DNA of 64,000 bases from Candidatus Nomurabacteria bacterium. GTDB taxonomy: Bacteria > Patescibacteriota > WWE3 > UBA101185 > UBA10185. The stretch lies in contig JACKGU010000002.1 in assembly GCA_020631855.1 (NCBI GenBank), positions 22,569 through 86,568 on the forward strand. The letters are read 5' to 3'. The position numbers were made by a program, and so were the translations under genes. A model generated the notes under the pieces. That model did no database searches. It was not told where the DNA came from and saw only the letters and a list, made by a program, of their open reading frames with translations. This document shows, piece by piece, positions 14,557 through 45,577 of this stretch. How positions within the stretch are numbered: the first letter of the stretch is position 1; every line of letters starts with the position of its first letter.

Positions 14557-14668
14557 ATTTTCCGTGCACTTTAGTTATTCTCGTTTAAAGTTAGGGGTGG
14601 TGTAGCAGTAAGGTCATGGAGTGTTTCATGCTCCAAGATGCAAATGAGACAATAGCACAGGCTGGGGG

Positions 14669-16026: not shown

Positions 16027-16518
16027 TTGGACAATGTTGTACTCGTACTATATAATTACACCATGGTACCAGCGATAATTCCAATACCTTTCGTACAATA
16101 TGTTAAAAAAGAAGATGTTTTTTCTTTTCTTACAAGCAGAAGAAAAGTTGTTGGCCTAGTTTTATTTGCAATGGTTAATGTAAATGTGATTATGGCCTTG
16201 GCTGTTTTTCCTAGGTTACGGTCTATGTATATAGATTTGGGAATACCAGTCCCCATGCCTATAACAATATTCCCATATGGTATTACCTTACTCGGGTTGG
16301 TTTATCTAGCCATAAGTGTTTATTTATTTTCTACCAAGCCCGATAAAGAAAAGATAGAAGAGCTAATTAGTAAATATAACGATGGGGAGATGATTAGTGT
16401 AAAGCAGTTCACAGAAGTTAAGTTGGATTTGCTAGTATTTTTCCTAATTGGTTTATCTGTTGCTTATCTATTGCTGTCAATCGTTGCCCCAATCTACAGT
16501 ATAACTTCTTCAGTGTAG
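16027..16518 (+). CDS. hypothetical membrane protein
   Basis: 163 aa, about 4 TM helices. Confidence 0.35.
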   Translation: MDNVVLVLYNYTMVPAIIPIPFVQYVKKEDVFSFLTSRRKVVGLVLFAMVNVNVIMALAVFPRLRSMYIDLGIPVPMPITIFPYGITLLGLVYLAISVYLFSTKPDKEKIEELISKYNDGEMISVKQFTEVKLDLLVFFLIGLSVAYLLLSIVAPIYSITSSV

Positions 16519-17399
16519 CGCATGCGATAGTTTGCACCCATAAGTATGTAAGATGAGTTAACATCATAATTAGTTATTATTTCTTCCCCTAACCTAAATT
16601 GAGTTTCCAAAGTATCAAAACCTACATGGGGTGTCGCAACAACGTTATCCAAATTAACAAGTTCAACCGTCTCTTTTGCAGGACTCCCTTTCAAGGGTTC
16701 ATTTGAAAATACGTCTAAAGCAGCGCCTGCAATTTCTCGTTTGCTTAATTTATCAAATAGGGCTTTCTGATCGATAATTTCACCTCTTGCCGTGTGGACA
16801 ATAAATGCAGATTCTCTCAGTAAATCTAATCTATCCTTATTAATTAAGTTCCTAGTATTCTCATTCAAAGGGAGATTTAAAACTAAATAATCGGTCCCTT
16901 TTACATATCTGTTAAAAACCTCTTCTGAAGTTTTTGAGTTAGCAGATAGAACACGTATGCCAATTGAATTTAGTAGCTTAGCAGCTTTACTTCCAATATT
17001 ACCTTCTCCAACTATAAATGCGGTTCTATTGGCCAATTCTACTCCAGTCGTTTGGGAACCCCGCCATATTCCGCTTCTTAATTCAATATTTTGTTGAGTA
17101 ATTCTTTTAGAAACCGCCAACATCAAACCCAAGGTAAGTTCTGCTACTGCGCACGAATTGTGCGTAGGACAATTTATTACCCTTATACCTTTTTCTTTTG
17201 CAGAAACAGCATCTACCCATTCATAACCAACTGCTGGAACTATAATATATTTTAATTTATTTACTTTGCTTAGTATTTCCTCTGTAATATCAATCCAGTT
17301 AGCCGTAATTACTTCAGCCTACGCCAAGGCTTCTGCGGATAACTTCTCGTCCAACCACTACCATAAAAATTTGTATTCCACTTTCAGCGAAATTCAAGT
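16494..17399 (-). pseudogene. D-isomer-specific 2-hydroxyacid dehydrogenase, N-terminal domain disrupted by in-frame stops
   Basis: Intact C-terminal NAD-binding part 16494..17132 (GIWRGSQ...VGEGNIGSKAAKLL...). The same frame upstream still reads a recognisable catalytic-domain sequence (AEVITANWIDITEEILSKVNKLKYIIVPAVGYEWVDAVSAKEKGIRVINCP...) but contains TAG at 17319-17321 and 17358-17360 and TGA at 17394-17396. Confidence 0.55.
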
Positions 17400-23534: not shown

Positions 23535-23608
23535 GCGGGATTAGTTGAAAGGCTCAACGTCACCCTTCCAAGGTGAAGATACGGGTTCGATTCCCGTATC
23601 CCGCTCCA
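23535..23608 (+). tRNA. tRNA-Gly (anticodon TCC), CCA encoded
   Basis: Acceptor GCGGGAT/ATCCCGC, anticodon stem TCACC/GGTGA, loop CTTCCAA, T-loop TTCGATT. Confidence 0.85.
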
Positions 23609-25148
23609 TATCGGACTGCATTTGCAAAAATGCCCTTTTAATCCGATCTGTAGGGCTATTTTCAGGTTCGAGCCACTCATTTTTCCTAATTACGCTTTTT
23701 TCAGTCTCTTTGATATACACAAACGCGTTTTTGGCGTTGATTCGGACTATTCTATCTTTTAGCTCTAGGTTCGAGCCAAGTATCCTCAGAACCATCCTTT
23801 TTGCTTCTGTGTCGTAAGAATGGAAGATTTTGGTAACATTTGCTAAGAACGCCAACACCTCCTCCATGACCTCCGTCCAATTCGTAAGACCATCACCCGC
23901 AATGCTATCTTTAGTTTGTTTCTCCTCAACTAGTAATCGGCTTTTTTCCTTTTTATACTCATCGTCACTAATTAAGCCTTCTATCTTCATCCCGTAGAGG
24001 TTCTTTTTCTCGACTAGTATCGAATCTAAGCGTTTGGTTAATTTGCTCTTTTGTCCACGCTCAAACTCAAATTCCCGCTCATTTCTGCGCTTCAGGTTTT
24101 TTCTTACCCACGTTACAAATGTGGGTCTAATCTCTAGGCTACTAATGAAAGCGATAACTTGTTTTTCAACTTCGATTGCATTCAGATAAGGCTGACTACA
24201 TGGCCCCTTTTTCTTAACACATCTCGCATAAATAAAAGTCTGTGAGTTCCCGTTTTTATACTTCTTCGTTTTTCGATCGCATGTAATTGCAGATCCACAT
24301 TCTCCGCATTTGAGTGTCTTCATAAAATAAAAGTCATTCGTGAACTGGTGAATTTTGGCTCTGCCGTCAATGATATCCTGAACGCGATAGTATTCATCAA
24401 TGGTAACCATTGGTGTATGTTTGCCGTTAAAACGTTCTCCATTGTAATCAAATAGTCCAGCATAAAATACGTTCCTAAAAAACCTAAACGCTTCCGTTCT
24501 ACTGACTGGTTTTCCCGTCCTTTTGCTTTTCAACCCTAAGGCAGTAATTTTTTCTAGCGAACTTTCGACAGTCTCATTTCCTGTAAGCATAAATTCCCAC
24601 CAAGATCGGCATAAGTTAAATCTATCCGGATCAGGAAGAACTTCTTTTTGCCCCTTTGGTTTAATAGGGTCATTCAAATACCCCAAAGGAGCTGAGCCAG
24701 GTCGCCAGCCGTTTTGAACCTTTGTATTCATTCCTCTTTTGACATTATCGGAAAGGTCTTTGCTAAATTTAGTTGCCATGCCAAATTCGATAAAAAGGAA
24801 GGTAGAGTTGTTGCGATCGTAATCCATGGTAGGGGTGACGATCAACATGCCGTTATAGTCGACGTGATCAATGAGCGTACCACCTTCCTTAGCATTTCGG
24901 CAGAGTCGATCGGCTTTCCAACAGAGTATGTGTTTTACCTCTCCCTTGGAAACTCTTTCAACCATGGCTGTAAATTCTGGACGATGATCAGGGCGCTTAG
25001 CTGATTTACTTTCTTTATAGACTCCCAGAACCGCAAACCCCTTATCTTTGGCCAATTCTTTACATGTGCGTTCCTGATCATCAAGGGAGAGAATTTGTCG
25101 ATCTTTATCCTCGGAAGATTTTCTACAGTATATAAAACAAGTATTCAT
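23541..25148 (-). CDS. large serine recombinase (integrase)
   Basis: 535 aa; N-terminal resolvase domain with catalytic Ser (YCRKSSEDKDRQ), recombinase domain, zinc ribbon CGECG...C; last ~22 codons overlap tRNA-Gly antisense. Confidence 0.8.
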   Translation of the reverse strand: MNTCFIYCRKSSEDKDRQILSLDDQERTCKELAKDKGFAVLGVYKESKSAKRPDHRPEFTAMVERVSKGEVKHILCWKADRLCRNAKEGGTLIDHVDYNGMLIVTPTMDYDRNNSTFLFIEFGMATKFSKDLSDNVKRGMNTKVQNGWRPGSAPLGYLNDPIKPKGQKEVLPDPDRFNLCRSWWEFMLTGNETVESSLEKITALGLKSKRTGKPVSRTEAFRFFRNVFYAGLFDYNGERFNGKHTPMVTIDEYYRVQDIIDGRAKIHQFTNDFYFMKTLKCGECGSAITCDRKTKKYKNGNSQTFIYARCVKKKGPCSQPYLNAIEVEKQVIAFISSLEIRPTFVTWVRKNLKRRNEREFEFERGQKSKLTKRLDSILVEKKNLYGMKIEGLISDDEYKKEKSRLLVEEKQTKDSIAGDGLTNWTEVMEEVLAFLANVTKIFHSYDTEAKRMVLRILGSNLELKDRIVRINAKNAFVYIKETEKSVIRKNEWLEPENSPTDRIKRAFLQMQSDMERDTGIEPVSSPWKGDVEPFN

Positions 25149-26850: not shown

Positions 26851-28413
26851 ATGGATAAAACAACCCTCTCCTTCCAGACAATCTCCATGCTAATCAATTC
26901 AGGAGAGTCAAAAAAAGCTCTTGAGAGATTGGCTGAATTCGAGGAAAAAAACTCTGAAGACAAGAGGTTGATATTTTATAAACCAGGTTTTCTAGTTGAT
27001 ATAGGTAATGATCTCAGAGACGAAAAAATCATTAGAGAAGGTATTGATCTTGGTGAAGTGACATTATCAAAAACAAAGAACAACAGGACACAGGCCTACC
27101 TCCGCTACTGCCTGGCAAATGGGTACACATATTTGCATCAACTTACAGAGAGTATGGGTGGCATTGTAGACCGGACCATACCTCAAAGCGAACACCTTCT
27201 ACAAGCTAAACGGCACTTACTTCAGGCTACTGATTTTGAAATTGATGACCCGAGCCTGAAAGTACAATTATTAGTTAACTTGGGTAACAGTCTAGACACG
27301 TTCGGTAGAGGAATAGAGGCAATTCACGCTTATAACGAGGCTCTTCGTTTAAGTAAAAATTTCCCTATGGCAGTGGCAAATAGAGCCAAGGCTCTTCGTG
27401 CATTTGCCGATATCTCTGACAAGTATCGAGCTTCGATATATGTTACAGCTTATCAGGACATTAAGTCGGTTCTAGACGATCCAAAACTAGTACAAGTTGG
27501 TGGGCTTGAAGCAAAGAAAGCTTTCGAACGTGAACTTACTAATATTGAATCCCGCTTCCAGGACAAATCGTTACTCAAGAAAAATATCAAACACCCTCGC
27601 TATAAAACCGATGGGCTTACCAAGTTTGAAAAATACTATTTGGACTTTTGCAGTCAGGAAGGATTGTTTCTAAACTTCCACATTCACGACGGTCACTGCG
27701 AAGCAGCTATTGAGGATCCTGTCTTTATCAGATTAATCACAAAGTTGGACGATAACGATACGTTTTATTACTTTGCAAAACAGCTCAATCAGATTAAAGA
27801 AGATTATGCTGTAGCCAGGTTGAATCTGGTCCAATCACAATACAAACAAAAAGCCTTCGATAACATTAGCAAAAGAACCAGTTATGTATATGCTTTGGAC
27901 TACTCACAATTTAATCTCTATATCGGTTTGTTGAAATCAGCATTTAAAGACGCATTCAACATATTAGATAAAATCGCAGTGTTTATTAATGACTACTACA
28001 ACCTGGAACTCAAGGAGAATAACATTTATTTCATTACAGCTTCAATCTGGGAGGATAAAGGAGCAATTAGAAGAGAAATACTTAACTCAGAAAATATAAG
28101 TCTTTACGCCCTATATGATATTTACCGAGATTTTAAATCAAACAGGTGTCAAAAAATTAAGCAAATAAGAAACGCACTTACCCACAGGAGACTAGTTGTC
28201 TTCGATTCATTAATAACAAGTATTGATGATGATGCCGATAAACACAATATCGACTCGGATACTCTCCTTCAAGAAACAGTGAATCTTATGCGACTAACTA
28301 AGGCAGCAATTATTTACCTGATTAATTTTGTAAATATTGAGGAAGAAAAGAAGCACAAAGCAGGTGTCAAGCCAATTCTGAGTATGTACGCAGACACTTC
28401 ACAATTTCTATAG
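26851..28413 (+). CDS. TPR-repeat protein with C-terminal HEPN-like (R-x4-H) domain; candidate defence/abortive-infection protein
   Basis: 520 aa; N-terminal TPR-like helices (AIHAYNEALRLSKNFPMAVANRAKAL); C-terminal KQIRNALTHRRLVVF contains Rx4HxR HEPN signature. Confidence 0.45.
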   Translation: MDKTTLSFQTISMLINSGESKKALERLAEFEEKNSEDKRLIFYKPGFLVDIGNDLRDEKIIREGIDLGEVTLSKTKNNRTQAYLRYCLANGYTYLHQLTESMGGIVDRTIPQSEHLLQAKRHLLQATDFEIDDPSLKVQLLVNLGNSLDTFGRGIEAIHAYNEALRLSKNFPMAVANRAKALRAFADISDKYRASIYVTAYQDIKSVLDDPKLVQVGGLEAKKAFERELTNIESRFQDKSLLKKNIKHPRYKTDGLTKFEKYYLDFCSQEGLFLNFHIHDGHCEAAIEDPVFIRLITKLDDNDTFYYFAKQLNQIKEDYAVARLNLVQSQYKQKAFDNISKRTSYVYALDYSQFNLYIGLLKSAFKDAFNILDKIAVFINDYYNLELKENNIYFITASIWEDKGAIRREILNSENISLYALYDIYRDFKSNRCQKIKQIRNALTHRRLVVFDSLITSIDDDADKHNIDSDTLLQETVNLMRLTKAAIIYLINFVNIEEEKKHKAGVKPILSMYADTSQFL

Positions 28414-28985: not shown

Positions 28986-29324
28986 ATGTGCGAAAAGCTG
29001 CTCATTTTCCAAAAAACATATGATTTACTTCTCTGGTTATACCCTGTAATTAACCGTATCCCTAAAAGCCACAGACTAGTATTAGGAAAAGAACTGGAAG
29101 AACTTGGTATAGCTTTGCTGGTCACTACGGTTAAAGCCAATAAAGTCCGTGGACAAGAAAGGACTTCTCTGCAACTTCAGATATCCGATGACCTTGACTC
29201 TATACGCATCCTTATCCGGCTCACAAAAGATTTAAGGCTTATGAGTATAAAACAGTATGCAATGGGTGCTGAAAAAATTAATGAAATAGGAAGGATGCTC
29301 AATTCATGGATGAAAGTGGTATAG
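28986..29324 (+). CDS. avd: DGR accessory variability determinant (Avd; four-helix-bundle / 23S rRNA IVS protein family)
   Basis: 112 aa; LLIFQKTYDLLLWLY...SLQLQISDDLDSIRILIRLTKDL...EKINEIGRMLNSWMK matches four-helix-bundle (TIGR02436/PF05635) pattern; located immediately 5' of TR and RT. Confidence 0.75.
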   Translation: MCEKLLIFQKTYDLLLWLYPVINRIPKSHRLVLGKELEELGIALLVTTVKANKVRGQERTSLQLQISDDLDSIRILIRLTKDLRLMSIKQYAMGAEKINEIGRMLNSWMKVV

Positions 29325-29357
29325 TTTTATTAAGGGGAAAATCACAAATACGCAGCG

Positions 29358-29476
29358 GTGTGTTCCTTCGCGGCGGGAATTGGAATAATGGTTCCAACGC
29401 GGGTGCGTTCACACTCAACCTGAATAACGATACGGGTAGCCAGAACAACAATATCGGCTTTCGCTGCGCCAGTGAT
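29358..29476 (+). repeat. DGR template repeat (TR)
   Basis: 119-nt near-identical copy of 31932-32050; carries A at 14 of the 15 positions where the two copies differ; AAC/AAT-rich. Confidence 0.85.
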
Positions 29477-29669
29477 GAACTTGCCAAGCACGTCTTGGTG
29501 TGCCGGATGAGTGATATGCGTTTAAGGATGCATATTCCGGATCTATATGATCACAAGGTTTTCTCCGTTTCCTGCCCATCGGTAGGGGAAAACATAATAC
29601 CTGTATCCCCGCGTCTTGTACGCAGCAGCGGCATGAGGCGCGGGGGAAATGGGTTAACTACCTCCGAGT

Positions 29670-30770
29670 ATGTTTGATAATATTTGCAACCTGGAACAAC
29701 TGGTTGGTGCGTACTATCGTGCCAGAAAGGGTAAGCGCGAGAAAACAAGAGTTTGTGAGTTTGATTTCACTCTTGAGAGTAATTTAATAAAGCTAAAATA
29801 CCTTCTGGAAACAGGAAAATATATCCCAGCTCCTTACGCTCACTTCACGATTTTTGATCCTAAGACAAGAAGCGTATCTGCGCCCGCGTTTCGAGACAGG
29901 GTATTACAACACTCACTAGTAAAGTCTGCCGAACCTTTGTTTGAAAAGAAATTTATTGTTGATTCTTATGCCTGCCGTGAAGGAAAAGGTACACACTTCG
30001 GAGCCAAACGGGTAAAGAAATTTTTAATGGCTGCCCGATGCAAATATGGCAAGCAACAGGACATTTACGTCCTTCAATGTGATATCCAAAAATACTTTCA
30101 GAGCATTGATTGGAACACACTCTTGATTATAGTGGCAAAGACAATCCATTGTCCTAAAACTCTCGATCTTATTAAAAAAATCGTAGAGAACCATGACTCA
30201 ACTAACAGAAAACTAATGCCGGCAAGTAAGGACAGCTGTCAATTAGATTTATTTTCGTCTCTTTCTCCCATTGAGGTACCACCGGTTTCCGTGGCGGAAA
30301 GAAAAGGGCTACCCATCGGCAACCTAACGAGTCAGTTATTTGCGAATGTCTATCTGAACGAGCTTGATCATTATGTCAAAGAAACGCTCCGCGAGAAATG
30401 GTATGCGCGATATATGGATGACTTCCTCGTTATCAGTAAAGACAAAAATCACCTGAAAGAAGTCAGGGAAGATATAAGAACTTTTCTTAACAAAAAACTG
30501 AAACTGCGTCTTCACCCCAGAAAAATCTCTATCAAAAATGTGAATGAGGGTGTCCCTTTTGTCGGCTACCGGATATTCTATGATCACAAACTAGTGAGAG
30601 GTGAAACACTCATCCGTTTACAGAGGAAGCACAGAAAGCGGCTAAAACTATTTCGGGAAGGGAAAATTACGGAAAATCAGATGCAAATGTCAGAAGCTTC
30701 AGTGCGCGGTCATCTGAAACACGCAGATGCACACGGCTTGTATTCTTTTATGACCAAGAATTCTGTTTGA
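29670..30770 (+). CDS. DGR reverse transcriptase
   Basis: 366 aa; RT motifs including LPIGNLTSQLFANVYL (DGR-specific IGxxxSQ variant of QGxxxSP) and YMDDF (YxDD catalytic box). Confidence 0.85.
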   Translation: MFDNICNLEQLVGAYYRARKGKREKTRVCEFDFTLESNLIKLKYLLETGKYIPAPYAHFTIFDPKTRSVSAPAFRDRVLQHSLVKSAEPLFEKKFIVDSYACREGKGTHFGAKRVKKFLMAARCKYGKQQDIYVLQCDIQKYFQSIDWNTLLIIVAKTIHCPKTLDLIKKIVENHDSTNRKLMPASKDSCQLDLFSSLSPIEVPPVSVAERKGLPIGNLTSQLFANVYLNELDHYVKETLREKWYARYMDDFLVISKDKNHLKEVREDIRTFLNKKLKLRLHPRKISIKNVNEGVPFVGYRIFYDHKLVRGETLIRLQRKHRKRLKLFREGKITENQMQMSEASVRGHLKHADAHGLYSFMTKNSV

Positions 30771-30838
30771 CTTTTGCTGAGAATTAGTTATACTGAATAG
30801 TAAGAGTAGGTAGGTGTTACCTATGGTATTCAATTATT

Positions 30839-33800
30839 ATGCGTATAATACAGAGAATTAAACATTATCTGTGGGAGCCACGGTTTCATTTCAGCCGCTT
30901 TCAGTTTAATCTGGTAGCACTTGTTTTTATTGGTGTTGGTTTTGTTAGCGGCACTTACCTGGCGCTTTCCGAACTCTACCCAAAAGTTTTTGCTCTCAAT
31001 GATAGCGCCAAAGTTTGGACTTTTAATGCCGCCAGCTCCGGTGACTATACTACAAGCCAAACTGTCGTTGACAATAGTGGTGCTCATCCTACTGGGGGGC
31101 AAGTAGGGGCAAATGAACTTGCAAATCCTGCTTTTGCTTCTGATAACACCTCATGGAGTGTAGCGGCAGTCCCGCCATCTGGTTATGTGGAGGTTCCGGG
31201 TAATGCCACCTACGGAACCAGTAACTTCCTCGCAATGCAGTATGAAGCAAAATACGACTGTACTGCTACGCCTGACGGCGATGGTGATACTGCGGCTACG
31301 TGTTCGGCTCCTGCCGACTCAGGGTTGGGATTAGATTATCGTGATATCAGTGGTTTTTCTTCCAGCCGCGTTGTCTCTACAGCCAACGGCGCTCCGATTG
31401 TTCACATCACCCACACCCAGGCACTCACAGCTTGTCCTACGGGTTATCATCTGATTACTAATCCCGAATGGATGTCGATTACAAGAGATGCCGAAGCTCA
31501 AACTTCCAACTGGGCTAATGGAGTAGTCGGCAGCCTTGTGTCTGCCGGCGGCGGATTTAAACGCGGTAATGTAGGTCAGAGCGATAGCGTAAGTTATAAC
31601 GGCAATGATCCTGAATACGGTTCCGGCCGTGACAGCAAGGCCATGTTAACACTTTCTAACGGTGCTACGATCTGGGATTTATCCGGCAATGTTTGGGAAC
31701 ATGTAAAAATAAATTCTGGCGATACACTTATTCCTCAAAATCAACAGCCTACTTTAAGTATTGCTGGTGATGATGCCGCAGGAACAGGTGCCTGGGGAGA
31801 ATTCACCGAAATTTCCGGATACGGAATACTCTCGTATGACCAGATAAGACCTTCGGGTTCCTCATATAATGCAAATCACGGTGTGGGTCGCATATGGACC
31901 TACGGTGACGGTGAAACTGCCACCACCGATCGTGTGTTCCGTCGCGGCGGGTCTTGGTATAATGGTTCCTACGCGGGTGCGTTCACACTCGGCCTGTCTT
32001 ACGCTACGGGTAGCCAGTACCACGATGTCGGCTTTCGCTGCGCCAGTGATCCCGTAGGAATCTCTCAATCTTATTCATCTAGTTCCGGCGTAGCCGGCGG
32101 CGGCGGAAATTCGGTGGCTATAGGCTCTGTATCCGACGGGAAAATTTACCAGTCGGTAAATGTGGGTGATACTTCTACTTATGATTTTTCTGTTTATGTC
32201 TATAACAATACCTCCGGCAGTGAGGGTACTGTCGTTGACGGGAGCGTTGCCAGCCTATACTACAACGGATCCACAATCACTACCTCGTACGAAGCGGTGT
32301 CCGGCAACTGGTACAAGCTAACCGGAACCCTGACTGGTGCCAACGCTTCCCGCGAGTACGGTGTGTTAGTTAAAACCGGAAAAACCGTCAAGGTAGATGA
32401 CTTTACTCTCACAAAACAAGGCACTTATAGTGTCTATACCACGAGTGCTTACTCAAATGCTTTGGTAGCTACCTGGGACACCTTCTGCGAAGGCACGTTG
32501 TCCGGTTCCACCTGCACCGAAGATGCCACTCAGGGCGGTTATGGTGTTATTAAATATCAGATTTGCACGGATGACGGATCTACCTGCGAATCAGGCGGGT
32601 CATGGAAATACTGGGATGGGGCTGCCTGGCAAACAGCGTCCAATACAACTACGCATGTCAATACAAAAGTGCAACTTACCCAGACAGCCATGCAGGCGCT
32701 TCCCATTTTCTCCCAGAAGATATCCATTAAGGCGATCTTTACCTCCGGCGGAAGTGATGTCCCGTATCTTCCTCATGTTTCCATTGGTCTGACTACCGAT
32801 ACCACCCCACCCGACACAAATGCCTCTGCAGTCACTATGACCAGAAGCAATGGTGGCACAAGCGTATCCTCTAACGGCTGGACCAACAATCTCTCTCCAT
32901 ATTTTTCCTGGACAGCTGGAGCAGATAATAGTGGTGGAAGTGGCGTAAAAGGGTATTGTTTGTATTTAGGAACAGACTCAAATGGCAATCCAGCGACCAG
33001 CAAAGGACTCCTTGGGACAAGTCCTGTCTCAACAGCTGGAACAACCTGTCAGTTTATCGTTTCAGCAACATCGATTGATTTTGCTACCTCATCATATAAA
33101 GGAGGAACTTGGTTAACCACTTCAAGTGACCCTTATTATTTAAACATTAAGGTTGTAGATAATTCCGGTAATGTTTTTGGTGGAAGCTCAGAGCAATTCC
33201 AATTTCGATTTGACAATACTGCTCCAACCAATACGTCATACATTTCCTGTGCCTCTGGATCTTTTTCAAATGTGGCAGATATGAACTTTTCGTGGCCAAC
33301 TTCAGGGGGTGTTGCTTCCTCTGACACCAACGCTGGAGTTTTAGGTTGGCAATACCAGATCAACTCAACTGTTGGAACATGGCTGGGGACAACAACTGAG
33401 TCAAGCTTGGGAATCAATAATTACATACCAACCAGTGCTTCTTCCAGAACTCTTACCCAAGATCAAGATGGATCCTCGATTGTGTCTGGAAATAACATTG
33501 TGTACTTTAGGAGTGTAGACGCAGCAGGTAACACTTCAACTGACGCATCCATCAGAACCTGTAACCTCTCTTACGGTGGAGCTGCACCTGCTTTTGATGG
33601 CCTAGATGAAGTTACGGTTACGCCATCAACTTCTACCTCAAACTCATACGCTTTAAGCTGGCCGGCAGCAACGGCGACGTCGGGCCAATCAGTTGCACAT
33701 TATTATTACATGGTTAATACCTCACCTCCGTCGACATTGGCAACTTTGCAAAGTAATAGTGCTACATATATCGACAATGGCACTTCAACAACCGTTGCAG

Positions 33801-35473
33801 CTGCGGCATTATCGAATGTAAATAAGGGCAGTAATACGGTTTATGTTGTAGCGGTAGATGACGCGGATACTCCTAACTATTCTCCCTCCAACTATATAAG
33901 CGGAGCATTTACACTAAATTCTACAGATCCGGATAACGTGAGCGGCCTGGTGGCATCTGACTCTTCGATCAAGAGCCTGTCTCAGTGGAACGTAACCCTA
34001 ACCTGGGCAGCACCTACATACCAGGGTGCTGGGAATTTAACATATCTTATCTACCGTTCATCAGACGGAACCAGTTTCACTCAGGTTGGATCAACAACAG
34101 GTTTGTCTTACGTAGACAATACACCATCCTCCGCACTCTATTACTACAAGCTTTATACAAAGGATGGAGCTAATGCGACATCATCTGGTACAAATGCCGT
34201 TTCCATCACTCCTACCGGCAAATGGACAACTGCACCGTCTCTTGATTCCGGTCCAAGTGTTGGTAGTATTACCACTAAAAAAGCAACCATTGCCTGGACG
34301 ACCTCCAGATCCAGTGACTCTAAAGTGCAATACGGAACATCATCGGGAAGCTACGGAGATGTAGAGCCGAGCAACTCCTCCCAGGTCAGCTCTCATTCAA
34401 TTCAGTTAACAGGCCTTAATCCGGGAACAACTTACTATTACAAAGCTAAATGGACGGATGAAGACGGTAATACCGGTACCAGCGAAGAAAAGAATTTTAC
34501 CACGGCTGCTGCCCCCACTGTTAAAGATGTTGTTGCTAAAAATATCGGTCTTTCTTCGGCGATTATTCAATTTACTTCCAAGGATGCTTCTAAGGTGAAA
34601 ATATACTACGGCACGACGACCAGTTTTGGTGGGGCAAAAGAAATCTCAACGTCGACCTCTGAAACAACCTATACTGCTGAACTTACAGGTCTGTTGGACG
34701 GCACTAAATATTATTACAAAATCAACACTTTTGACAGCGACAACAGTGAATATGAAGGTACAGTTTTGGATTTCACCACTCTACCCCGTCCCAGAATAAG
34801 CAATGTCAGGATTCAGCAAGTGGCCAATACAGCTCAATCGACTGTTCTTGTTACCTGGATGACGAACACAGATGTTTCTTCCATTGTCACATACTATCCG
34901 GAGGAAAATACAGCTGATGCCCGAGATGAAGTTAATGTGGCTCTCACTAAAGGTGAACACCGGATGATTATCCGCGGGTTAGCACCGCAAACTAACTACA
35001 TTTTGGTAGTTAAGGGCAGGGATAAGATTGGCAACGAAGCAACTTCCGATACTCAACGAATTACTACTGCCACAGATACAAGACCTCCACAGATTTCGGA
35101 ACTCCATGTAGAAGGAGCCGCGATTCCGCCAACAGCCTCCACAGCTCAGGAATCTATGGCGCAGCTTATTGTTTCCTGGAATACAGACGAACCATCAACT
35201 TCACAGGTTGAATTCGGAGAAGGCACAGGCACTACGTACTCATCAAAGACTCAGGAAGATAGTAACCTGACGTATAATCACCTGGTTATTATTTCCGGCC
35301 TGACTCCGAGCAAGGTCTACCATGTACGAACTATCTCAAAAGATAAAGCCGGGAATACAGGAAACTCAATTGACACGGTAACCATAACTCCTAAAGCGAC
35401 TGAAAATGCTCTGAATCTTGTCATTACTAATTTACAGGAAGCATTTGGGTTTCTGGGAGGATTAACTAAATAA
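30839..35473 (+). CDS. DGR target (variable) protein: N-terminal TM anchor, FGE-sulfatase/C-type-lectin-fold domain carrying VR, long Ser/Thr-rich region with FN3-like repeats
   Basis: 1544 aa; TM at residues ~22-45; GNVWEHV and RGGSWYNG...GFRCASD FGE/CLec motifs; VR at 31932-32050; C-terminal repeated IAWTTSRSSDSKVQYG...TTYYYKAKW FN3-like modules. Confidence 0.8.
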   Translation: MRIIQRIKHYLWEPRFHFSRFQFNLVALVFIGVGFVSGTYLALSELYPKVFALNDSAKVWTFNAASSGDYTTSQTVVDNSGAHPTGGQVGANELANPAFASDNTSWSVAAVPPSGYVEVPGNATYGTSNFLAMQYEAKYDCTATPDGDGDTAATCSAPADSGLGLDYRDISGFSSSRVVSTANGAPIVHITHTQALTACPTGYHLITNPEWMSITRDAEAQTSNWANGVVGSLVSAGGGFKRGNVGQSDSVSYNGNDPEYGSGRDSKAMLTLSNGATIWDLSGNVWEHVKINSGDTLIPQNQQPTLSIAGDDAAGTGAWGEFTEISGYGILSYDQIRPSGSSYNANHGVGRIWTYGDGETATTDRVFRRGGSWYNGSYAGAFTLGLSYATGSQYHDVGFRCASDPVGISQSYSSSSGVAGGGGNSVAIGSVSDGKIYQSVNVGDTSTYDFSVYVYNNTSGSEGTVVDGSVASLYYNGSTITTSYEAVSGNWYKLTGTLTGANASREYGVLVKTGKTVKVDDFTLTKQGTYSVYTTSAYSNALVATWDTFCEGTLSGSTCTEDATQGGYGVIKYQICTDDGSTCESGGSWKYWDGAAWQTASNTTTHVNTKVQLTQTAMQALPIFSQKISIKAIFTSGGSDVPYLPHVSIGLTTDTTPPDTNASAVTMTRSNGGTSVSSNGWTNNLSPYFSWTAGADNSGGSGVKGYCLYLGTDSNGNPATSKGLLGTSPVSTAGTTCQFIVSATSIDFATSSYKGGTWLTTSSDPYYLNIKVVDNSGNVFGGSSEQFQFRFDNTAPTNTSYISCASGSFSNVADMNFSWPTSGGVASSDTNAGVLGWQYQINSTVGTWLGTTTESSLGINNYIPTSASSRTLTQDQDGSSIVSGNNIVYFRSVDAAGNTSTDASIRTCNLSYGGAAPAFDGLDEVTVTPSTSTSNSYALSWPAATATSGQSVAHYYYMVNTSPPSTLATLQSNSATYIDNGTSTTVAAAALSNVNKGSNTVYVVAVDDADTPNYSPSNYISGAFTLNSTDPDNVSGLVASDSSIKSLSQWNVTLTWAAPTYQGAGNLTYLIYRSSDGTSFTQVGSTTGLSYVDNTPSSALYYYKLYTKDGANATSSGTNAVSITPTGKWTTAPSLDSGPSVGSITTKKATIAWTTSRSSDSKVQYGTSSGSYGDVEPSNSSQVSSHSIQLTGLNPGTTYYYKAKWTDEDGNTGTSEEKNFTTAAAPTVKDVVAKNIGLSSAIIQFTSKDASKVKIYYGTTTSFGGAKEISTSTSETTYTAELTGLLDGTKYYYKINTFDSDNSEYEGTVLDFTTLPRPRISNVRIQQVANTAQSTVLVTWMTNTDVSSIVTYYPEENTADARDEVNVALTKGEHRMIIRGLAPQTNYILVVKGRDKIGNEATSDTQRITTATDTRPPQISELHVEGAAIPPTASTAQESMAQLIVSWNTDEPSTSQVEFGEGTGTTYSSKTQEDSNLTYNHLVIISGLTPSKVYHVRTISKDKAGNTGNSIDTVTITPKATENALNLVITNLQEAFGFLGGLTK
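31932..32050 (+). repeat. DGR variable repeat (VR) inside target gene
   Basis: 15 mismatches to TR, 14 at TR adenines; identical 3' end GGCTTTCGCTGCGCCAGTGAT (IMH-like). Confidence 0.85.
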
Positions 35474-35476
35474 TCT

Positions 35477-36277
35477 ATGAGTGAATACTTATTTCAAGTC
35501 CAGCAGGTTTCAAAGTCGTTCCATGTGGCTACTGCTGACGTGCCGGTTTTGAAAAACATTACCTTTGACATAAAGAGGGAAGACTTTGTGGTTATTTTTG
35601 GACCGTCAGGGTGTGGAAAATCCACATTGCTTCACACCATGCTGGGTTTGGAAGAACCCAGTAGCGGCAAAGTTTTGTTTTTGGATAAAAATCTTTACAA
35701 CGGAGTCACTGAAGATGAGCGCTCGGACTTTCGGAAGCAACATGCAGGGATGGTGTATCAGCAACCGAACTGGATCCGTTCCTTGACCGTGCAGGAAAAT
35801 GTAGCTTTCCCTTTGCAACTGCTTGGCGAAGACAAGAGCGTTGCCCTCGAGAAAGCGAAACAGGCTCTGGAAATGGTAGAGATGCTTGAGTGGTCTGCAT
35901 ACATACCCACGGAGTTATCAAGCGGTCAGCAACAACGTGTAGCTTTGGCACGGGCACTGGTTACCAATCCTGAAGTTATTATAGCCGATGAACCGACGGG
36001 AAACCTGGACTATGAATCAGGACAGGAACTCATGCAGCTATTGACCTCATTAAATAAGAAAGCCAGGAAAACTATCGTTATGGTGACACACGACCTGGAA
36101 TACTTGAGATTTGCAAAGACTGCAGTGAGAATGTTTAACGGCCAGATTGTCGGAGTATACGACGAGAAAGATCAGAATAAACTAATGAATGAAATCAAAG
36201 GTAAACGCGGAAACGGTGACTTTGAACATCAGGCAAAACCGGAAAAATTAGAGCCATCAAAAAACATACAACCATGA
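35477..36277 (+). CDS. ABC transporter ATP-binding protein (MacB/LolD-like)
   Basis: 266 aa; Walker A GPSGCGKST, signature LSSGQQQRVALARAL, Walker B IIADEPTGNLD; starts 4 nt after DGR target stop. Confidence 0.8.
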   Translation: MSEYLFQVQQVSKSFHVATADVPVLKNITFDIKREDFVVIFGPSGCGKSTLLHTMLGLEEPSSGKVLFLDKNLYNGVTEDERSDFRKQHAGMVYQQPNWIRSLTVQENVAFPLQLLGEDKSVALEKAKQALEMVEMLEWSAYIPTELSSGQQQRVALARALVTNPEVIIADEPTGNLDYESGQELMQLLTSLNKKARKTIVMVTHDLEYLRFAKTAVRMFNGQIVGVYDEKDQNKLMNEIKGKRGNGDFEHQAKPEKLEPSKNIQP

Positions 36278-38304
36278 TCAAACTTAATATAAAAGGCAGA
36301 ATCAGCACAATGTTCCACACCATGTATCAGATGGGGACTTTTGTATTGCTTTTAATTTTGTATATGACCGGTAAGGGCATCTCCCGCCTGGCTAATTGGA
36401 GATTTTTCCCAAAAATAATTAAAAATAGGTTATCAGGTCCATTGGCACTTTTTTATTCCAAAGCGGTTAAGATTCTGGATTTTAAACGGACCGGAACTAT
36501 CTCACGTATTGATTTGATTGAACTTTCAATACGAAATATGAAAGCAAAAAAGACAAGAACTATTGTAACCATAGGCGGAATGATGATAGGTATAGGTACG
36601 ATTGTTTTCCTGGTTTCCATCGGTTACGGGTTACAACAACTCGTAATCACCAGAGTAGCCAGGCTTGAAGAAATGAGACAAGCTGATATAACTCCACAAG
36701 CTGGCGGCAAGGTCAGAATTGATGACAAGACTCTCAATGACTTTAAAGATATTACTGCTGTCGAAATGTCTCTGCCGCTCATAGCTGTTGTCGGTCGGGT
36801 AAATTACCAAAACTCTGTATCTGATATGGCGGTTTACGGTGTTACCACAGACTATCTCAAACAATCAGCCATCAAACCTATTCAGGGAAAAATATTTGAC
36901 AGCAACGAATTAACAGCAGAGCTTCCGGATACATCTGGAAAAGTGGCTGGTGTTTATACTGAAAGTAAGTCCGGTGAACCCGGAGAAAAAATACAGGATG
37001 TCGAATACACAATTGATCAAACAAGTTGGATCCGTGTAAGGGAAGATGCATCTACGAGTGCAAAAGTGTTGGGGTATACCAAACGTGTGGAAGGAAGTTC
37101 TAACGGTGAGGAGGTTTGGGGTGGTAAATATACTTCGGATAACGGAGCGGGTACAGCGGGTGAGTCAGAAACAGGCTCTACAATCGGGAAATGGATAAAA
37201 GCTCCTGTACTCCTCTGGAAGGAGCAAACATGTGACACGGAAACGGAAGGTGACTGCGAAGATGGTAAATATATGGTTCTTAGGGACGAGGACAGCAAAC
37301 AAGCGCAGAAAGAAGGATACTTTGCTGAAATTGGCCTGACAATTAGTGGAGCCAGTATCAAATATACTCAAGTTTTAGGCGAAACTACTGATGTTTCTTC
37401 CGGAAGTGCTCAACCTGTTACTAATACTGCCACCTCTCTTGATTGGGTTGAGATTGCTTCAGAAGCAGGAGTTATTCAGACATCTGATATCAAAACAGTA
37501 GAGTTATCGGACAGTGCCAAGAAACAAGCGGTTGTTAACCGGGCAATGCTGAAAATTCTCGGCATTAATGAAAATGAGGCTGTTGGTAAGAAATTTACGG
37601 CTTCATTTGTCGTTGTCGGTGAACTACTGGCAGATCCGAAAGAAAAAATTGAGTCAGCACCGACTGAATATACCATCGTGGGAGTTACTCCTGAAGAAAA
37701 GACCCCGGTTTTCTATGTTCCCTTCATGGACTTAAGATCTTTGGGAATCAGTAACTATTCTCAAGTCAAGGTTGTAGTTAAAGACCAAACGGATCTTTCA
37801 AAAACCAGAAAGCAGATTGAAGCAATGGGGTATATTACCAGATCGGTAGCTGATACAGTTGCACAAATTAATTCGCTATTTGCGACTGCCAGAACACTTT
37901 TAGCTCTTTTAGGAATGGTGGCTCTGGCTGTAGCGGCTCTGGGGATGTTTAACACGTTAACCGTGTCATTACTTGAAAGAACCAGAGAGGTGGGACTCAT
38001 GAAAGCAATGGGGATGAAATCATCGGAAGTGCAGGAGCTATTCCTTACAGAATCGATGATAATGGGATTCTTTGGCGGAGTCCTGGGGATATTTGTCGGC
38101 TTCCTATTCGGTAAATTAGCAGGACTCTTCCTATCATTCTTCTCAATAGTTAGAGGAGTCGGGTTTGTAGACATCTCCTATTTGCCGTTCCCCTTTGTGC
38201 TTGTCGTAGTGTTTTTATCTCTCTTAGTCGGCATTGCTACCGGAATATATCCAGCCAGGCGTGCAACAAAGATTTCCGCTCTCAACGCTCTTCGGTACGA
38301 ATAA
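36274..38304 (+). CDS. ABC transporter permease, MacB/FtsX family with large extracytoplasmic domain
   Basis: 676 aa; TM1, about 420-aa periplasmic region, three C-terminal TM helices (FtsX-like); start overlaps ATPase stop (ATGA). Confidence 0.7.
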   Translation: MIKLNIKGRISTMFHTMYQMGTFVLLLILYMTGKGISRLANWRFFPKIIKNRLSGPLALFYSKAVKILDFKRTGTISRIDLIELSIRNMKAKKTRTIVTIGGMMIGIGTIVFLVSIGYGLQQLVITRVARLEEMRQADITPQAGGKVRIDDKTLNDFKDITAVEMSLPLIAVVGRVNYQNSVSDMAVYGVTTDYLKQSAIKPIQGKIFDSNELTAELPDTSGKVAGVYTESKSGEPGEKIQDVEYTIDQTSWIRVREDASTSAKVLGYTKRVEGSSNGEEVWGGKYTSDNGAGTAGESETGSTIGKWIKAPVLLWKEQTCDTETEGDCEDGKYMVLRDEDSKQAQKEGYFAEIGLTISGASIKYTQVLGETTDVSSGSAQPVTNTATSLDWVEIASEAGVIQTSDIKTVELSDSAKKQAVVNRAMLKILGINENEAVGKKFTASFVVVGELLADPKEKIESAPTEYTIVGVTPEEKTPVFYVPFMDLRSLGISNYSQVKVVVKDQTDLSKTRKQIEAMGYITRSVADTVAQINSLFATARTLLALLGMVALAVAALGMFNTLTVSLLERTREVGLMKAMGMKSSEVQELFLTESMIMGFFGGVLGIFVGFLFGKLAGLFLSFFSIVRGVGFVDISYLPFPFVLVVVFLSLLVGIATGIYPARRATKISALNALRYE

Positions 38305-43049: not shown

Positions 43050-43637
43050 ATGGCTAAATTTAAACCATCACAATCCAGTATTAAAAGAGTGTTTTCGAAA
43101 CTGAGAATCATCGTTAACACTGATGACGGTGAAGAAGATTACGATACAACCTGGTATCCCAATGGTTTTGCTAGTAACCAGATATCAATTGGTCATGATG
43201 GCACGGGTAGCAACGATGCAGGATTGAGATTTTTGCGGCCACTTTTACCAAATAACGTCAAGATCATTAAAGCAGTTCTGAGGGTCAAGTCTGCTGTCAA
43301 CTCCACAAAACGACCCGTCTTCGTCATTAAAGGCATTAAACAACCCAGCACTCTAAGCTTCGACTCAACTCACAGACCTTCTCAGCAACCCAAAACGACA
43401 GCTACTGTTGCGTGGGTACCGGGGGCAGATTGGGCAATTAATACCTGGTATGAAAGCCCTGACATTAAATCAATTATCCAGGAAATTATCGATCAGACGG
43501 AGTTTACCAATAAAGCAATTGGTATAGCGATTGAAGATAATGCCAGCCCTTCCAATAACTATGAAAACATATGGGACTTTAACAGTGGCAACGCGAACGC
43601 ACCACAACTCATATTGACGATCGATGCAAATTTGTAA
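43050..43637 (+). CDS. phage tail-associated protein, single copy of a ~190-aa domain repeated twice in 43913..45577
   Basis: 195 aa; DGEEDYDTTWYPNGF and YESPDIKSIIQEIID motifs shared with downstream gene. Confidence 0.45.
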   Translation: MAKFKPSQSSIKRVFSKLRIIVNTDDGEEDYDTTWYPNGFASNQISIGHDGTGSNDAGLRFLRPLLPNNVKIIKAVLRVKSAVNSTKRPVFVIKGIKQPSTLSFDSTHRPSQQPKTTATVAWVPGADWAINTWYESPDIKSIIQEIIDQTEFTNKAIGIAIEDNASPSNNYENIWDFNSGNANAPQLILTIDANL

Positions 43638-43962: not shown

Positions 43963-45577
43963 TGACGGCAAAGAAGCTGGGTCTTCGACTTGGAATAAAG
44001 ATGGTAATGCTTCAAACGTTATAACTTTGGGAAACTTCACCGGCGCTCAAACCGGTGCATTGCGATTTCGTGCTATCGATATTCCAAAGTTTTCAAAAGT
44101 TCTCCTAGCCAGGCTTCGTCTTCGCCCTGCAATCACCGATGAGACTGACTTTACAGTTAACCTGAAGATTAAGGGAATTAAAGAACCAGACCCCGCCCCA
44201 TTCAAACCAAACGGCTCAAATCGTCCATCCACTAGAACCAAAACAATCAACGCAGTCGATTGGGACATTATCAGAAAATGGAACGTCCACGAATGGGTTC
44301 AAACACCAAACTTGAATCTAATCGTGGAAGAACTCATTTCTCAAAGTGGCTGGAAGCCAGGTAATTCATTAGCCTTTGTCATTGAGGATGACGGTAGCCC
44401 AGCCGATCAATCAAAAACCTGTTATGACTCCAGCAAAGGTGAAGGTTACCAGGCAGAACTTGAAATTTACTATCTCCCTCAAGGATTGCATGAACAAGTC
44501 ACGATCGGATTAATCCAAGGCAACGATCGGGATGGTGAAGAAGATTATAAAAGCACTTGGTATCCAAATGGTTTTCAGAACAATATGACCACCTTTGGAG
44601 ATGATGGCAGTCTAGATCCAGAGCAATCACCCAACGATGCTGGTTTTATTTTCAGCCCGATTGCAATTCCTAAAAGAGCAGAAATTATTTCAGCAAAGAT
44701 ACTTGTAACCAGTCCTTTCCAAAACAACGGCATGCCAAATGTTTTAATTAAAGGTCTGGCTGAAGATGATGCTGCAGTCTTTGTCTCCAATGGCTCAAAT
44801 CGTCCTTCGCTACGCAATAAGACGAACGCAAAGGTTCAGTGGAACTTAGGACATGCCGAAGCAGGTGTGCTTATAGGAGATCACTGGACTGCAGAAAGTG
44901 CCTACGAATCACCAGAGCTCAAAGATATTATTCAAGAAATTGTTGACCGCCCAGGTTGGGCAGAAAGCAAGCTTGGACTTGTGCTGGAGAACTATAACTC
45001 CGGACACGGAAACACAAAATACATTTGGGACTATAACCAAGATTCAGGTAAATACGCTCCTCGACTACTTATAGCCTGGACAAAAGAACGCAGAGTAACC
45101 GCCAGAGACAAAGACGTGGAGACTTTCAATAAAGCTAACTACCCCGAGTTTATTATTGTCCACCATTCAGCCACTCCTCGGGATAACACCCGCTTTGAAA
45201 CGATTAAGAAGGCTCACATCGGCTTTGGTTGGGATGATATCGGATATCACAAATGGATAGCCGGAGCCCTTGACGGAGATGGTGTGTTGATCTTAGGCCG
45301 ACCAGACAATGTTATCGGTGCTCACTGCGACAGCAACAAAATGAATTACCGCTCATTAGGAGTAGTTTTGTGCGGCAGCTTCCATAACAGTGAAACCCCT
45401 ACCTCCGCCCAACTGACAACTTTGCAGAAAGTTCTAGACGACTTGCGCCAAGAAAGAAGTATTCCAAAAGAAAGAGTTTTCGGTCATGGGGAAGTTCCTG
45501 AATCAGCTACAGATTGTCCAGGCAATGCCATCTTGCCCTATGTCCAGAGATATAGAGCGACCGGAAGTTTGCAATAA
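43913..45577 (+). CDS. tail protein with two paralogous receptor-binding-like domains and C-terminal N-acetylmuramoyl-L-alanine amidase (Amidase_2/PGRP) domain
   Basis: 554 aa from MKNQV (start chosen by homology to 43050 paralog); C-terminal FIIVHHSATPRDN...GWDDIGYHKWI...GAHCDSNKMNYRSLGVVLCG matches Amidase_2. Confidence 0.6.
   Translation: MKNQVLKIKVTIQENSDDGKEAGSSTWNKDGNASNVITLGNFTGAQTGALRFRAIDIPKFSKVLLARLRLRPAITDETDFTVNLKIKGIKEPDPAPFKPNGSNRPSTRTKTINAVDWDIIRKWNVHEWVQTPNLNLIVEELISQSGWKPGNSLAFVIEDDGSPADQSKTCYDSSKGEGYQAELEIYYLPQGLHEQVTIGLIQGNDRDGEEDYKSTWYPNGFQNNMTTFGDDGSLDPEQSPNDAGFIFSPIAIPKRAEIISAKILVTSPFQNNGMPNVLIKGLAEDDAAVFVSNGSNRPSLRNKTNAKVQWNLGHAEAGVLIGDHWTAESAYESPELKDIIQEIVDRPGWAESKLGLVLENYNSGHGNTKYIWDYNQDSGKYAPRLLIAWTKERRVTARDKDVETFNKANYPEFIIVHHSATPRDNTRFETIKKAHIGFGWDDIGYHKWIAGALDGDGVLILGRPDNVIGAHCDSNKMNYRSLGVVLCGSFHNSETPTSAQLTTLQKVLDDLRQERSIPKERVFGHGEVPESATDCPGNAILPYVQRYRATGSLQ

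Follow-up and report, generated by a model that had tools for sequence, protein, structure and literature searches.

A complete diversity-generating retroelement with an internal variable repeat on a phage-derived island of a Candidatus Nomurabacteria bacterium

Background

In the diversity-generating retroelement (DGR) of phage BPP-1, an accessory gene (avd), a template repeat (TR) and a reverse transcriptase (RT) gene form a core in that order, and TR sequence is transferred, with changes specific to its adenines, to a variable repeat (VR) in a target gene. The BPP-1 TR is rich in AAY codons and proof against stop codons, and the target has a C-type-lectin (CLec) fold. A GC stem 4-34 bp from the BPP-1 VR has been shown experimentally to matter in its structure and not in its sequence, and the hairpins of phage DGRs have 7-10-bp stems and GRNA tetraloops (PMC3240598). 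This report concerns a complete DGR in a 64,000-nt window (the whole stretch of DNA analyzed, to whose positions all coordinates refer) of contig JACKGU010000002.1, from a Candidatus Nomurabacteria assembly (GCA_020631855.1). Its VR lies inside the gene of a large, probably exported protein; comparisons between natural relatives point to recent activity, and the element is carried on a phage-derived island.

C-terminal VRs are near-universal in surveys of DGRs, which has been explained by cis-acting signals that need freedom from coding constraint (PMC8144416). In figures, 87% of VRs are terminal (PMC11661182), and internal VRs are a documented minority state (PMC5758913; PMC11661182). Internal VRs are found mainly in Ig-type targets, in which the signal for initiation of mutagenic homing then overlaps the coding sequence, and the Treponema DGR uses an HRDC accessory gene (Wu et al. 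2018, PMC5758913). Among bacteria of the Candidate Phyla Radiation (CPR), surveyed DGRs are almost entirely cellular and their targets usually lack transmembrane (TM) or other recognizable domains (PMC8144416). In the CPR set of Wu et al. 2018, 90% have architecture B3, with avd inverted, and essentially no information is given on phage association (PMC5758913). The function of CPR DGR targets is, according to the published surveys, essentially unknown.

The window element shares with BPP-1 the avd-TR-RT core order, homologous RT and Avd proteins, adenine-specific transfer from TR to VR, an AAY-rich and stop-proof TR, a CLec-fold target, and a phage-borne setting; a GC hairpin 3' of the VR resembles that of BPP-1 in part, and the order of RNA elements flanking the TR also agrees with that known for BPP-1 by published description. 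In contrast to BPP-1, the target gene is downstream rather than upstream of the RT gene, the VR occupies aa 365-404 of 1544 instead of the C-terminus, and the cis elements fall within coding sequence. Hairpins of the clade to which the element belongs have 5-9-bp stems, mostly with 3-nt loops (8 bp and GRNA in BPP-1), and the upstream strand of a long-range RNA duplex is intergenic (inside avd in BPP-1). The target carries a signal peptide, has an ABC-transporter partner, and is probably no tail fibre. The variable proteins TaqVP of Thermus aquaticus (5vf4) and TvpA of Treponema denticola (2y3c) are ~280-380 aa long with a C-terminal VR, whereas the variable domain is here the N-terminal head of a 1544-aa fusion.

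The host phylum is that of the surveyed CPR DGRs ("clade 2" of Roux 2021, PMC8144416; the "CPR set" of Wu 2018), yet the window clade has avd, TR and RT in one orientation, a target that combines a signal peptide with FN3 repeats, and linkage to a phage. As in the internal-VR DGRs of Wu et al. 2018, the VR lies inside a gene and the homing signals overlap coding sequence; those elements are mainly of Ig1/Ig2 type with isolated CLec cases, whereas here a whole clade is of CLec type and its signals are visible as a peak of synonymous conservation. The departures from the common DGR pattern are five: the VR position, the target downstream of the RT gene, the co-oriented avd, the signal peptide-FN3 target, and the phage linkage. 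Members of the clade are present in public metagenome-assembled genomes (MAGs) and were probably counted in earlier surveys. No account of the embedded cis elements, the ABC/FN3 association, or the phage context of this clade was found in the DGR literature covered.

Repeat pair, Avd, and reverse transcriptase

A repeat search finds a single 119-nt direct repeat in the window, with copies at 29358-29476 and 31932-32050 (both on the + strand) that are 87% identical. The upstream copy, between avd and the RT gene, is the TR; it contains 29 adenines, and 10 of its 39 codons are AAC or AAT. The downstream copy is the VR and encodes aa 365-404 of the target. The two copies differ at 15 positions (A>T at six, A>C at four, A>G at four, and T>G at one), so that 14 of the 29 TR adenines are changed, as opposed to 1 of the 90 other bases (Fisher one-sided p=1.7e-9). 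All of the adenine changes are in codon positions 1 or 2 of the target frame (30839-35473), and no adenine substitution in the TR can reach a stop codon; the theoretical repertoire is 4^29 DNA variants and ~4e16 protein variants. Related loci compared with the window are designated by L-numbers, and the adenine bias is found in every examined member of the clade with a TR/VR pair. No further VR-like copy is present on either strand of the 64 kb; this absence and the adenine bias together rule out a chance repeat or ordinary paralogy. An open reading frame (ORF) of 123 aa at 29306-29677 was rejected as a gene: it has no family match and represents the TR read in the VR frame.

The avd gene (28986-29324, + strand) encodes a DGR accessory protein of 112 aa that scores 92.8 bits against the NCBIfam equivalog NF033474 DivGenRetAVD (cut-off 80) and 81.4 bits against Pfam bAvd (cut-off 40), and it matches phrog_3206, "Avd protein of DGR" (E=1e-25). 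The RT gene (29670-30770, + strand) encodes 366 aa and is assigned to the DGR clade by its motifs and search scores. Its nearest relative in the PDB is the BPP-1 enzyme bRT (8ub7_A, E=1.1e-52), whereas the RTs of group II introns and retrons score ~1e-16; LPIGNLTSQ and YMDD align with IPIGSLTSQ and YMDD of bRT. The match to phrog_1423 is at E=2e-110, and Pfam gives only a generic RVT_1 match. DGR RT relatives in the database are mostly from Patescibacteria MAGs. Relative to bRT, the protein has an insertion of ~37 aa (30186-30296, aa ~173-209) directly ahead of LPIGNLTSQ, between two aligned blocks.

The element has the defining properties of a DGR. A first-pass annotation, made from the sequence alone, had described the repeat pair at these coordinates, with 15 differences of which 14 fall at TR adenines and a T-to-G exception, as well as the density of Asn codons in the TR and the two RT motifs; repeat search, mismatch tabulation and alignment agree with it on each point, and the ORF coordinates of avd, RT and target are as it gave them. 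Of the checks that it proposed, realignment returned adenine-specific mismatches, and classification placed Avd above curated cut-offs and the RT far nearer 8ub7 than group II introns.

Homing between natural relatives

Evidence for activity is drawn from natural relatives, not from reads of the window's own sample. The RT of L082, an IMG/VR contig, is 87% identical to that of the window, and the two TRs agree at 118 of 119 positions. Their VRs differ at 15 sites, 13 of which are at shared TR adenines; one of the remaining two tracks the single TR difference, and the other is the 29367/31941 site of the lone T>G change. The 300-nt flanks of the VR are 84% and 82% identical. Because the non-adenine sites of the VR stay matched to the TR while the adenine sites diverge, within flanks that are ~17% diverged, homing must have taken place after the split of the window and L082 lineages.

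A similar pattern is seen within one population. L001 and L002 are two assemblies of a single Woesebacteria-labelled population whose target is 80% identical to that of the window, and they align without gaps over 12,496 nt. Excluding the first 167 nt at a contig end, all 13 differences between them lie inside the VR, 12 of them at TR adenines. VR variation restricted to TR-adenine sites, which the first-pass annotation had suggested seeking in population data, is in this way observed between natural relatives in both comparisons. Its description of the element as intact and probably active is supported: the ORFs are intact, the motifs are present, and a homing signal is seen between relatives.

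The target protein and its internal variable repeat

The target gene (30839-35473, + strand) is an uninterrupted ORF of 1544 aa. A Sec signal peptide is predicted at aa 1-52 (30839-30994), with cleavage between VFA and LND; the hydrophobic helix and the VFA-(L/A)ND junction are kept in orthologues, and in L023 this junction ends a short signal peptide of classical form. The protein is thus predicted, from its N-terminal sequence, to be exported. A C-type-lectin/FGE-type variable-protein domain is predicted at aa ~112-409 (31172-32065), and ~1125 aa of beta-rich repeats ending in FN3/Pur_ac_phosph_N-type domains extend to the C-terminus (32098-35473). Structure prediction was required for the N-terminal part because a sequence search of its 454 aa against the PDB gave zero matches. 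The region of aa ~112-409 is modelled confidently as a CLec/FGE fold, as the first-pass annotation had anticipated for residues ~150-410, and the top structural match is a DGR variable protein. In this model, the VR would encode the variable face of the domain; at the sequence level, invariant scaffold residues (RGG.W..G..AGAF.L.L...GFRC) alternate with variable positions. Pfam recognizes Pur_ac_phosph_N in four stretches and fn3 in the C-terminal part, and aa 651-1542 are 64-66% identical to CLec-less exported proteins of ~1055 aa from Microgenomates.

With 1140 aa after it, the VR is not C-terminal, and this internal position, on which the first-pass annotation made no comment, is the main departure from textbook DGRs; it is a variant trait rather than grounds for exclusion from the DGRs. 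Thirteen loci from several CPR lineages have uninterrupted target ORFs of 1360-1623 aa in which the VR is at aa ~323-483, with 948-1176 aa beyond it. Database homologues of the target include proteins of ~390-500 aa and of ~1050-1175 aa. An assembly or annotation artefact joining two genes is ruled out as the source of the fusion by the uninterrupted ORF in the 13 loci. Of the apparently split targets, that of L160 has a +1 indel inside the VR, and that of L161 is frameshifted, its two ORFs overlapping by 44 nt. The ~1055-aa proteins form a genuine CLec-less paralogue family with its own signal peptide.

Interruptions of the target in or beside the VR are present in L160 (3440-3640, where the indel is +1 with respect to the locus's own TR), L007, L016 and L018. 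These may be assembly artefacts arising from VR heterogeneity, or true indels made by an error-prone RT. Many homologues of the lectin domain are CPR proteins. Among them are numerous proteins of 380-520 aa (e.g., P0009, P0011, P0036 and P0084) with a prepilin-type N-terminal methylation domain (PF07963), which suggests lectin-tipped type IV pilin-like proteins as an alternative display of the same domain.

Proposed homing signals within coding sequence

Two candidate cis elements lie directly 3' of the VR on the + strand. The conserved 34-nt block CCCGTAGGAATCTCTCAATCTTATTCATCTAGTT at 32051-32084 is absent from the TR, begins precisely where TR/VR homology stops, and is proposed as a target-recognition element. 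It is followed, 34 nt past the VR, by a GC hairpin (CCGGC-GTA-GCCGG, 32085-32097) in the coding sequence of a Ser/Gly linker. The block stands out by conservation of synonymous sites, scored in 12-codon windows on a codon alignment of 11 diverged loci: the top 21 windows are all in aa 391-422, where synonymous identity peaks at 0.84 (gene mean 0.40; maximum 0.56 elsewhere in the target gene). This peak takes in the VR's constant 3' end together with ~14 codons beyond it.

The hairpin emerged only from positional comparison across loci; folding of 32020-32130 as one piece does not rise above shuffled sequence (z=0.65). A hairpin of at least 5 bp at an offset of 34-37 nt past the VR is present in 9 of 15 loci, as against 0.27 expected from each gene's own hairpin density (P~6e-13, a value that ignores relatedness; kinship is mitigated by seven independent stem versions), and none of 2000 codon shuffles matches this count. 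Across the seven distinct stem/loop versions, pairing is kept while the encoded peptide varies (GVAG, GREAAG, GRFAAG, GFPG, GRAG, GRQAS, GRADLGAA). The hairpin is also found in L160 and L161. In the structural model, the linker has a predicted local distance difference test score (pLDDT) below 50. The homing signals would thus be housed in a disordered linker under low constraint, and an internal VR may be possible because they sit inside the coding sequence of that linker, which would free the VR from the 3' end of the gene.

A structured template RNA

The 193-nt spacer between the TR and the RT gene (29477-29669, + strand) is a structured RNA, as judged from covariation across 14 loci. In the 14-locus alignment it folds as three hairpin units, with helices P1 (29513-29522/29527-29536), P2 (29568-29573/29585-29590), P3 (29599-29604/29649-29654) and P4 (29607-29617/29635-29645), an invariant GATCAC (29549-29554), and an A-rich tract (29589-29598). 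RNAalifold on the 14 loci yields 36 pairs, 26 of them with compensatory double changes. Of the cells of 33 tested spacer pairs, 91% are paired, compared with 33-53% when partners are slid by 1-3 columns, and the observed covariation is reached by 0 of 500 shuffles. No Rfam family matches the spacer, even at E<=1.

A long-range duplex brackets the TR. Its upstream strand, the G-rich GGGGAAAATC at 29334-29343 in the avd-TR intergenic region (+ strand), pairs with GGTTTTCTCC at 29557-29566 in the spacer, which begins 2 nt past GATCAC. A contiguous duplex of 10-14 bp is found in the same place in 14/14 loci, with differing sequences, and cognate strands pair more stably than non-cognate ones (-15.7 vs -10.3 kcal/mol; Mann-Whitney p=1.8e-7). 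Read 5' to 3', the elements are the upstream strand, the TR, a stem-loop, GAUCAC, the second strand of the duplex, another stem-loop, the A-rich tract and a long stem-loop. The published order in the BPP-1 ribonucleoprotein (RNP) is an Avd-binding stem-loop, a template:primer duplex, the avd:Sp "cPRT-stop" duplex, a stem-loop with A-minor adenosines, and a bRT-binding stem-loop (bioRxiv 10.1101/2023.10.23.563531). By comparison with that description, the 29334-29343/29557-29566 duplex is proposed as the analogue of the avd:Sp "cPRT-stop" duplex; the element-by-element match to the BPP-1 RNA is suggested by order and position. GATCAC, which is invariant in the 14 loci, is the complement of the GTGAT found at the TR's 3' end (29469-29473), where BPP-1 forms its template:primer duplex. 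A primer duplex of GUGAU with GAUCAC is plausible by position; several TRs would mismatch, while the spacer strand is invariant.

The putative transporter partner and the FN3-giant module

The gene for an ABC transporter ATPase (35477-36277, + strand; Pfam ABC_tran E=9e-35, LolD/FtsE-like) starts 3 nt after the target stop codon and overlaps by 4 nt the gene for a 676-aa MacB/FtsX-type permease (36274-38304, + strand; Pfam MacB_PCD and FtsX). Hydropathy of the permease shows TM1 at aa 95-113, an extracytoplasmic loop of ~420 aa, and three further TM segments at aa 534-646. The transporter is below every NCBIfam equivalog cut-off, and its subfamily is left general, as MacB-type. Features shared with the MacB/FtsEX/LolCDE "mechanotransmission" transporters are the MacB_PCD and FtsX domains, the prediction of four TM segments with a large extracytoplasmic domain separating TM1 from TM2, and a LolD/FtsE-like ATPase encoded separately. 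In contrast to these, the extracytoplasmic domain is ~2x the usual size, and a giant FN3 protein, whether or not it comes with a DGR lectin, is the conserved partner. The ATPase gene follows the target in 13 related loci and in L160-L165, and the permease gene is present wherever the flank extends that far.

In L162-L165, the neighbourhood is an ordinary Microgenomates chromosome, in which a CLec-less FN3 giant of ~1055 aa with a signal peptide accompanies the ATPase and permease, divergently oriented to an Avd-RT cassette. The L162 cassette targets a lectin of Lcl_C type, small, secreted and encoded by its own gene, whose C-terminus carries the VR; all of the VR mismatches are at TR adenines (13/13). 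No TR/VR pair was found in the scan of L164, where the target is unconfirmed. Between L162/L164 and the window, the RT is 33-36% and Avd 28-29% identical, compared with 64-66% for the FN3 giant, 57-59% for the ATPase and 50-61% for the permease. Because two DGR lineages join the same envelope module, with the lectin separate in one and fused in the other, a Rosetta-stone argument suggests that lectin, FN3 giant and MacB transporter work together.

In locus L161 (JGI 3300033145 Ga0366840_1000525, 10001-17356), the 3' block is retained along with an 8-bp hairpin and a VR-like segment that is poor in adenines; the target gene is frameshifted ~60 codons past the VR.

The phage-derived island and its host

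The element lies on an island whose integrase gene abuts a tRNA gene. A large serine recombinase of 535 aa (23541-25148, - strand; phrog_95 integrase) overlaps with its 3' end a tRNA-Gly(TCC) gene on the opposite strand (23535-23608), which the integrase ORF covers almost wholly. Other island genes encode an SU10-type major capsid protein and adaptor, an amidase, an M23 peptidase, a tail-fibre candidate (47742-49076), and a 1556-aa LPD38 "large polyvalent protein" (50288-54958) that matches PHROGs of unknown function. To the left of ~23.5 kb the genes are cellular (prolyl-tRNA synthetase, glycosyltransferases, thioredoxin reductase and four tRNAs), and to the right of ~56.5 kb there are a DNA-alkylation repair gene and PMT-type glycosyltransferases. 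GC content is 42-47% over 30-56 kb and 34-40% in the flanks, with a shift at ~56 kb. Two IMG/VR contigs, L081 and L082, share the island gene order on both sides of the DGR, and in L016 homologues of the LPD38, M23 and w56480 genes lie immediately ahead of the DGR. No direct repeats of at least 16 nt flank the island as att sites, and none was found to mark its other end. With a serine integrase the absence of such repeats is expected and uninformative.

Named relatives of the host prolyl-tRNA synthetase are nearly all from CPR lineages, at no more than 65% identity, so the host is a CPR bacterium, in line with the first-pass remark on DGRs in such genomes. Island proteins are up to 80-92% identical to those of other contigs, and this difference in identity is consistent with horizontal movement of the island. 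Several loci with DGRs of CPR type (L001, L008, L010, L011, L018, L020-L022 and L024) are on contigs titled Pseudomonadales or Gammaproteobacteria; these titles are likely mislabels or binning errors, L001 being near-identical to the Woesebacteria-labelled L002.

The slot directly upstream of avd holds an LA2681-type HEPN protein (26851-28413) in the window. In L082, genes for a C5 DNA methylase, a HerA/DUF87 ATPase, an unknown protein of 727 aa, an S26-peptidase-like protein, and a methyltransferase occupy this slot (1182-8795), which seems to take variable cargo, possibly with a role in defence. The LPD38 giant is unrelated to the DGR target, and its homologue in L016 is just upstream of the DGR. 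A 45-nt motif (DGEEDY..TWYPNGF) occurs at 43125-43169, 43964-44008 and 44531-44575, with one copy in a 195-aa ORF and two in the amidase's N-terminal part, and may be a cell-wall-binding repeat common to two proteins of the lysis module.

Proposed mechanism

The mechanism established for the BPP-1 DGR provides a scheme for the window element. A transcript that runs from the avd-TR intergenic region through the TR and across the 193-nt spacer would fold into the conserved structure and be bound, as template RNA, by an RT-Avd complex. The RT would copy the TR into complementary DNA (cDNA), misincorporating opposite adenines, and the mutagenized cDNA would then take the place of the target-gene VR, with the 34-nt block and the GC hairpin in the linker coding sequence marking the homing site. 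The exported target and the presumably co-transcribed MacB-type transporter would form a cell-envelope apparatus for display or adhesion, whose variable ligand-binding head is the lectin domain; the operon structure and transporter role are suggested by the signal peptide and conserved synteny.

Alternative explanations

The explanation judged best as a whole, at a probability of roughly 0.85, is a complete and recently active DGR with an internal VR and an exported, MacB-linked target, carried as lysogenic-conversion cargo. The target could instead be a receptor-binding protein of the virion, a tail fibre or spike comparable to BPP-1 Mtd, with the DGR serving phage tropism switching. This is improbable: the Sec-type signal peptide at the target N-terminus is conserved, whereas virion proteins normally assemble in the cytoplasm; the island has a separate tail-fibre candidate; and the target gene is near the integrase/cargo end, outside the structural block. 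The MacB-type transporter always follows the target, its ATPase belongs to a PHROG classed "moron", and orthologous FN3-giant/ABC modules are found in plain chromosomal contexts with PGK, GAPDH and UbiA. The DGR module is therefore most likely lysogenic-conversion cargo rather than a virion fibre. Still less probable is an intact-looking relic that is no longer mobile, with VR differences dating from ancestral activity. Only 14 of the 29 TR adenines differ, and targets are frameshifted or disrupted in L160, L161, L007, L016 and L018, both of which would fit a relic; yet every ORF is intact with the catalytic YMDD present, purifying selection is visible on the TR, the spacer helices and the cis elements, and the window/L082 comparison places homing after the split, while the sister element varies between the two assemblies of one population (L001/L002).

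The 34-nt block and hairpin could also serve translation or mRNA biology, as a pause, attenuation or recoding signal that gives a short lectin-only product. Constraint at the nucleotide level indicates action on nucleic acid without specifying its kind, and the hairpin would form in mRNA too; an out-of-frame TAG is present in the conserved ...CATCTAGTT... just ahead of it, and L161 retains both elements with no nearby DGR. Such a role is considered unlikely, because the block begins precisely at the end of TR/VR homology, and because the hairpin's position, GC-richness, and conservation of structure with freedom of sequence match the experimentally defined DGR target hairpin (PMC3240598). No canonical slippery heptamer was seen upstream of the hairpin by eye, without a formal scan. 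The VR-like segment of L161 is adenine-depleted, as for a remote or former DGR target.

Several observations weigh against the preferred explanation of an active, transporter-linked DGR on a phage-derived island. The lone non-adenine difference between TR and VR, a T>G at 29367/31941 (repeat position 10) that changes Leu to Arg, does not fit the adenine pattern. At this site, where TR/VR homology has begun only 9 nt earlier on its 5' side, L082 has T>A, and L001, L002 and L081 are unchanged; cDNA may not usually replace the sequence this far out, or the change may be a rare non-adenine error. (One T>G, between two mutated adenines, is also present in L002.) The hairpin at offset 34-37 is absent from 6 of the 15 clade members, and that of the window, with a 5-bp stem and a 3-nt GTA loop, is shorter than the 7-10-bp, GRNA-looped hairpins of phage DGRs. 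A scan for promoters and terminators gave counts no higher than in shuffled sequence. Placement of the variable residues on one exposed binding face is a prediction from sequence, and current activity in this genome is suggested by comparisons among relatives.

The functional link between lectin and ABC transporter is likewise suggested by synteny alone, and the target-ABC module is able to exist apart from a local DGR: in L161, which encodes a lectin-FN3 giant together with the ATPase and permease, neither Avd nor RT is found within 10 kb to the left or right. L161 could hold the remote target of a DGR elsewhere in its genome, or a module that has lost its DGR. As for the island, no terminase large subunit or portal is recognized by Pfam or PHROG among the scanned ORFs of at least 100 aa, a PDB search with a 515-aa ORF found neither, and the ORFs between the ABC permease and the capsid gene are all too small to encode one of them. 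Both genes may be absent or too divergent for recognition, and the island may be defective, satellite-like, very divergent, or no simple prophage. Because no terminase or portal is recognized, "phage-derived island" is the safer, cautious label. The first-pass annotation had called the island prophage-like; this is largely supported by the integrase at tRNA-Gly, the SU10 capsid and adaptor genes, the tail-fibre and lysin genes, the shift in GC content and the IMG/VR relatives, the unrecognized terminase and portal being the exception.

Implications

DGRs are well known, in the CPR as elsewhere, and the element itself is no surprise; its value lies in the internal VR, the envelope module, and the phage context. 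In the window, a CPR DGR that has close relatives in other CPR lineages is carried by a phage-derived island integrated at a tRNA gene. The covarying RNA that flanks the TR extends the layout of the BPP-1 RNP to the CPR and could seed an RNA family absent from Rfam. The clade is a natural, clade-wide case of an internal CLec-type VR, in which homing signals can be located from sequence alone within a 4.6-kb gene. This bears on the published argument that VRs are C-terminal because cis elements need freedom from coding constraint; it also points to a design rule by which DGR targets might be engineered into proteins of several domains.

Gene fusion on the one hand, and adjacency of the module to a different DGR clade on the other, connect the lectin with an exported FN3 giant and a MacB transporter, which offers a concrete, testable hypothesis on the function of CPR DGR targets. 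A tentative and rather doubtful extension is that the CPR DGR lectin is a plug-in head for an envelope apparatus of FN3 giant and MacB transporter, either separate (L162/L164) or fused, and that phages spread the fused, self-diversifying version among CPR lineages, with lysogeny reprogramming binding. If this were true, the internal VR would show that DGRs are not intrinsically confined to the 3' ends of genes, and lysogeny would change the binding of an episymbiont to its host cell, to particles, or to other phages.

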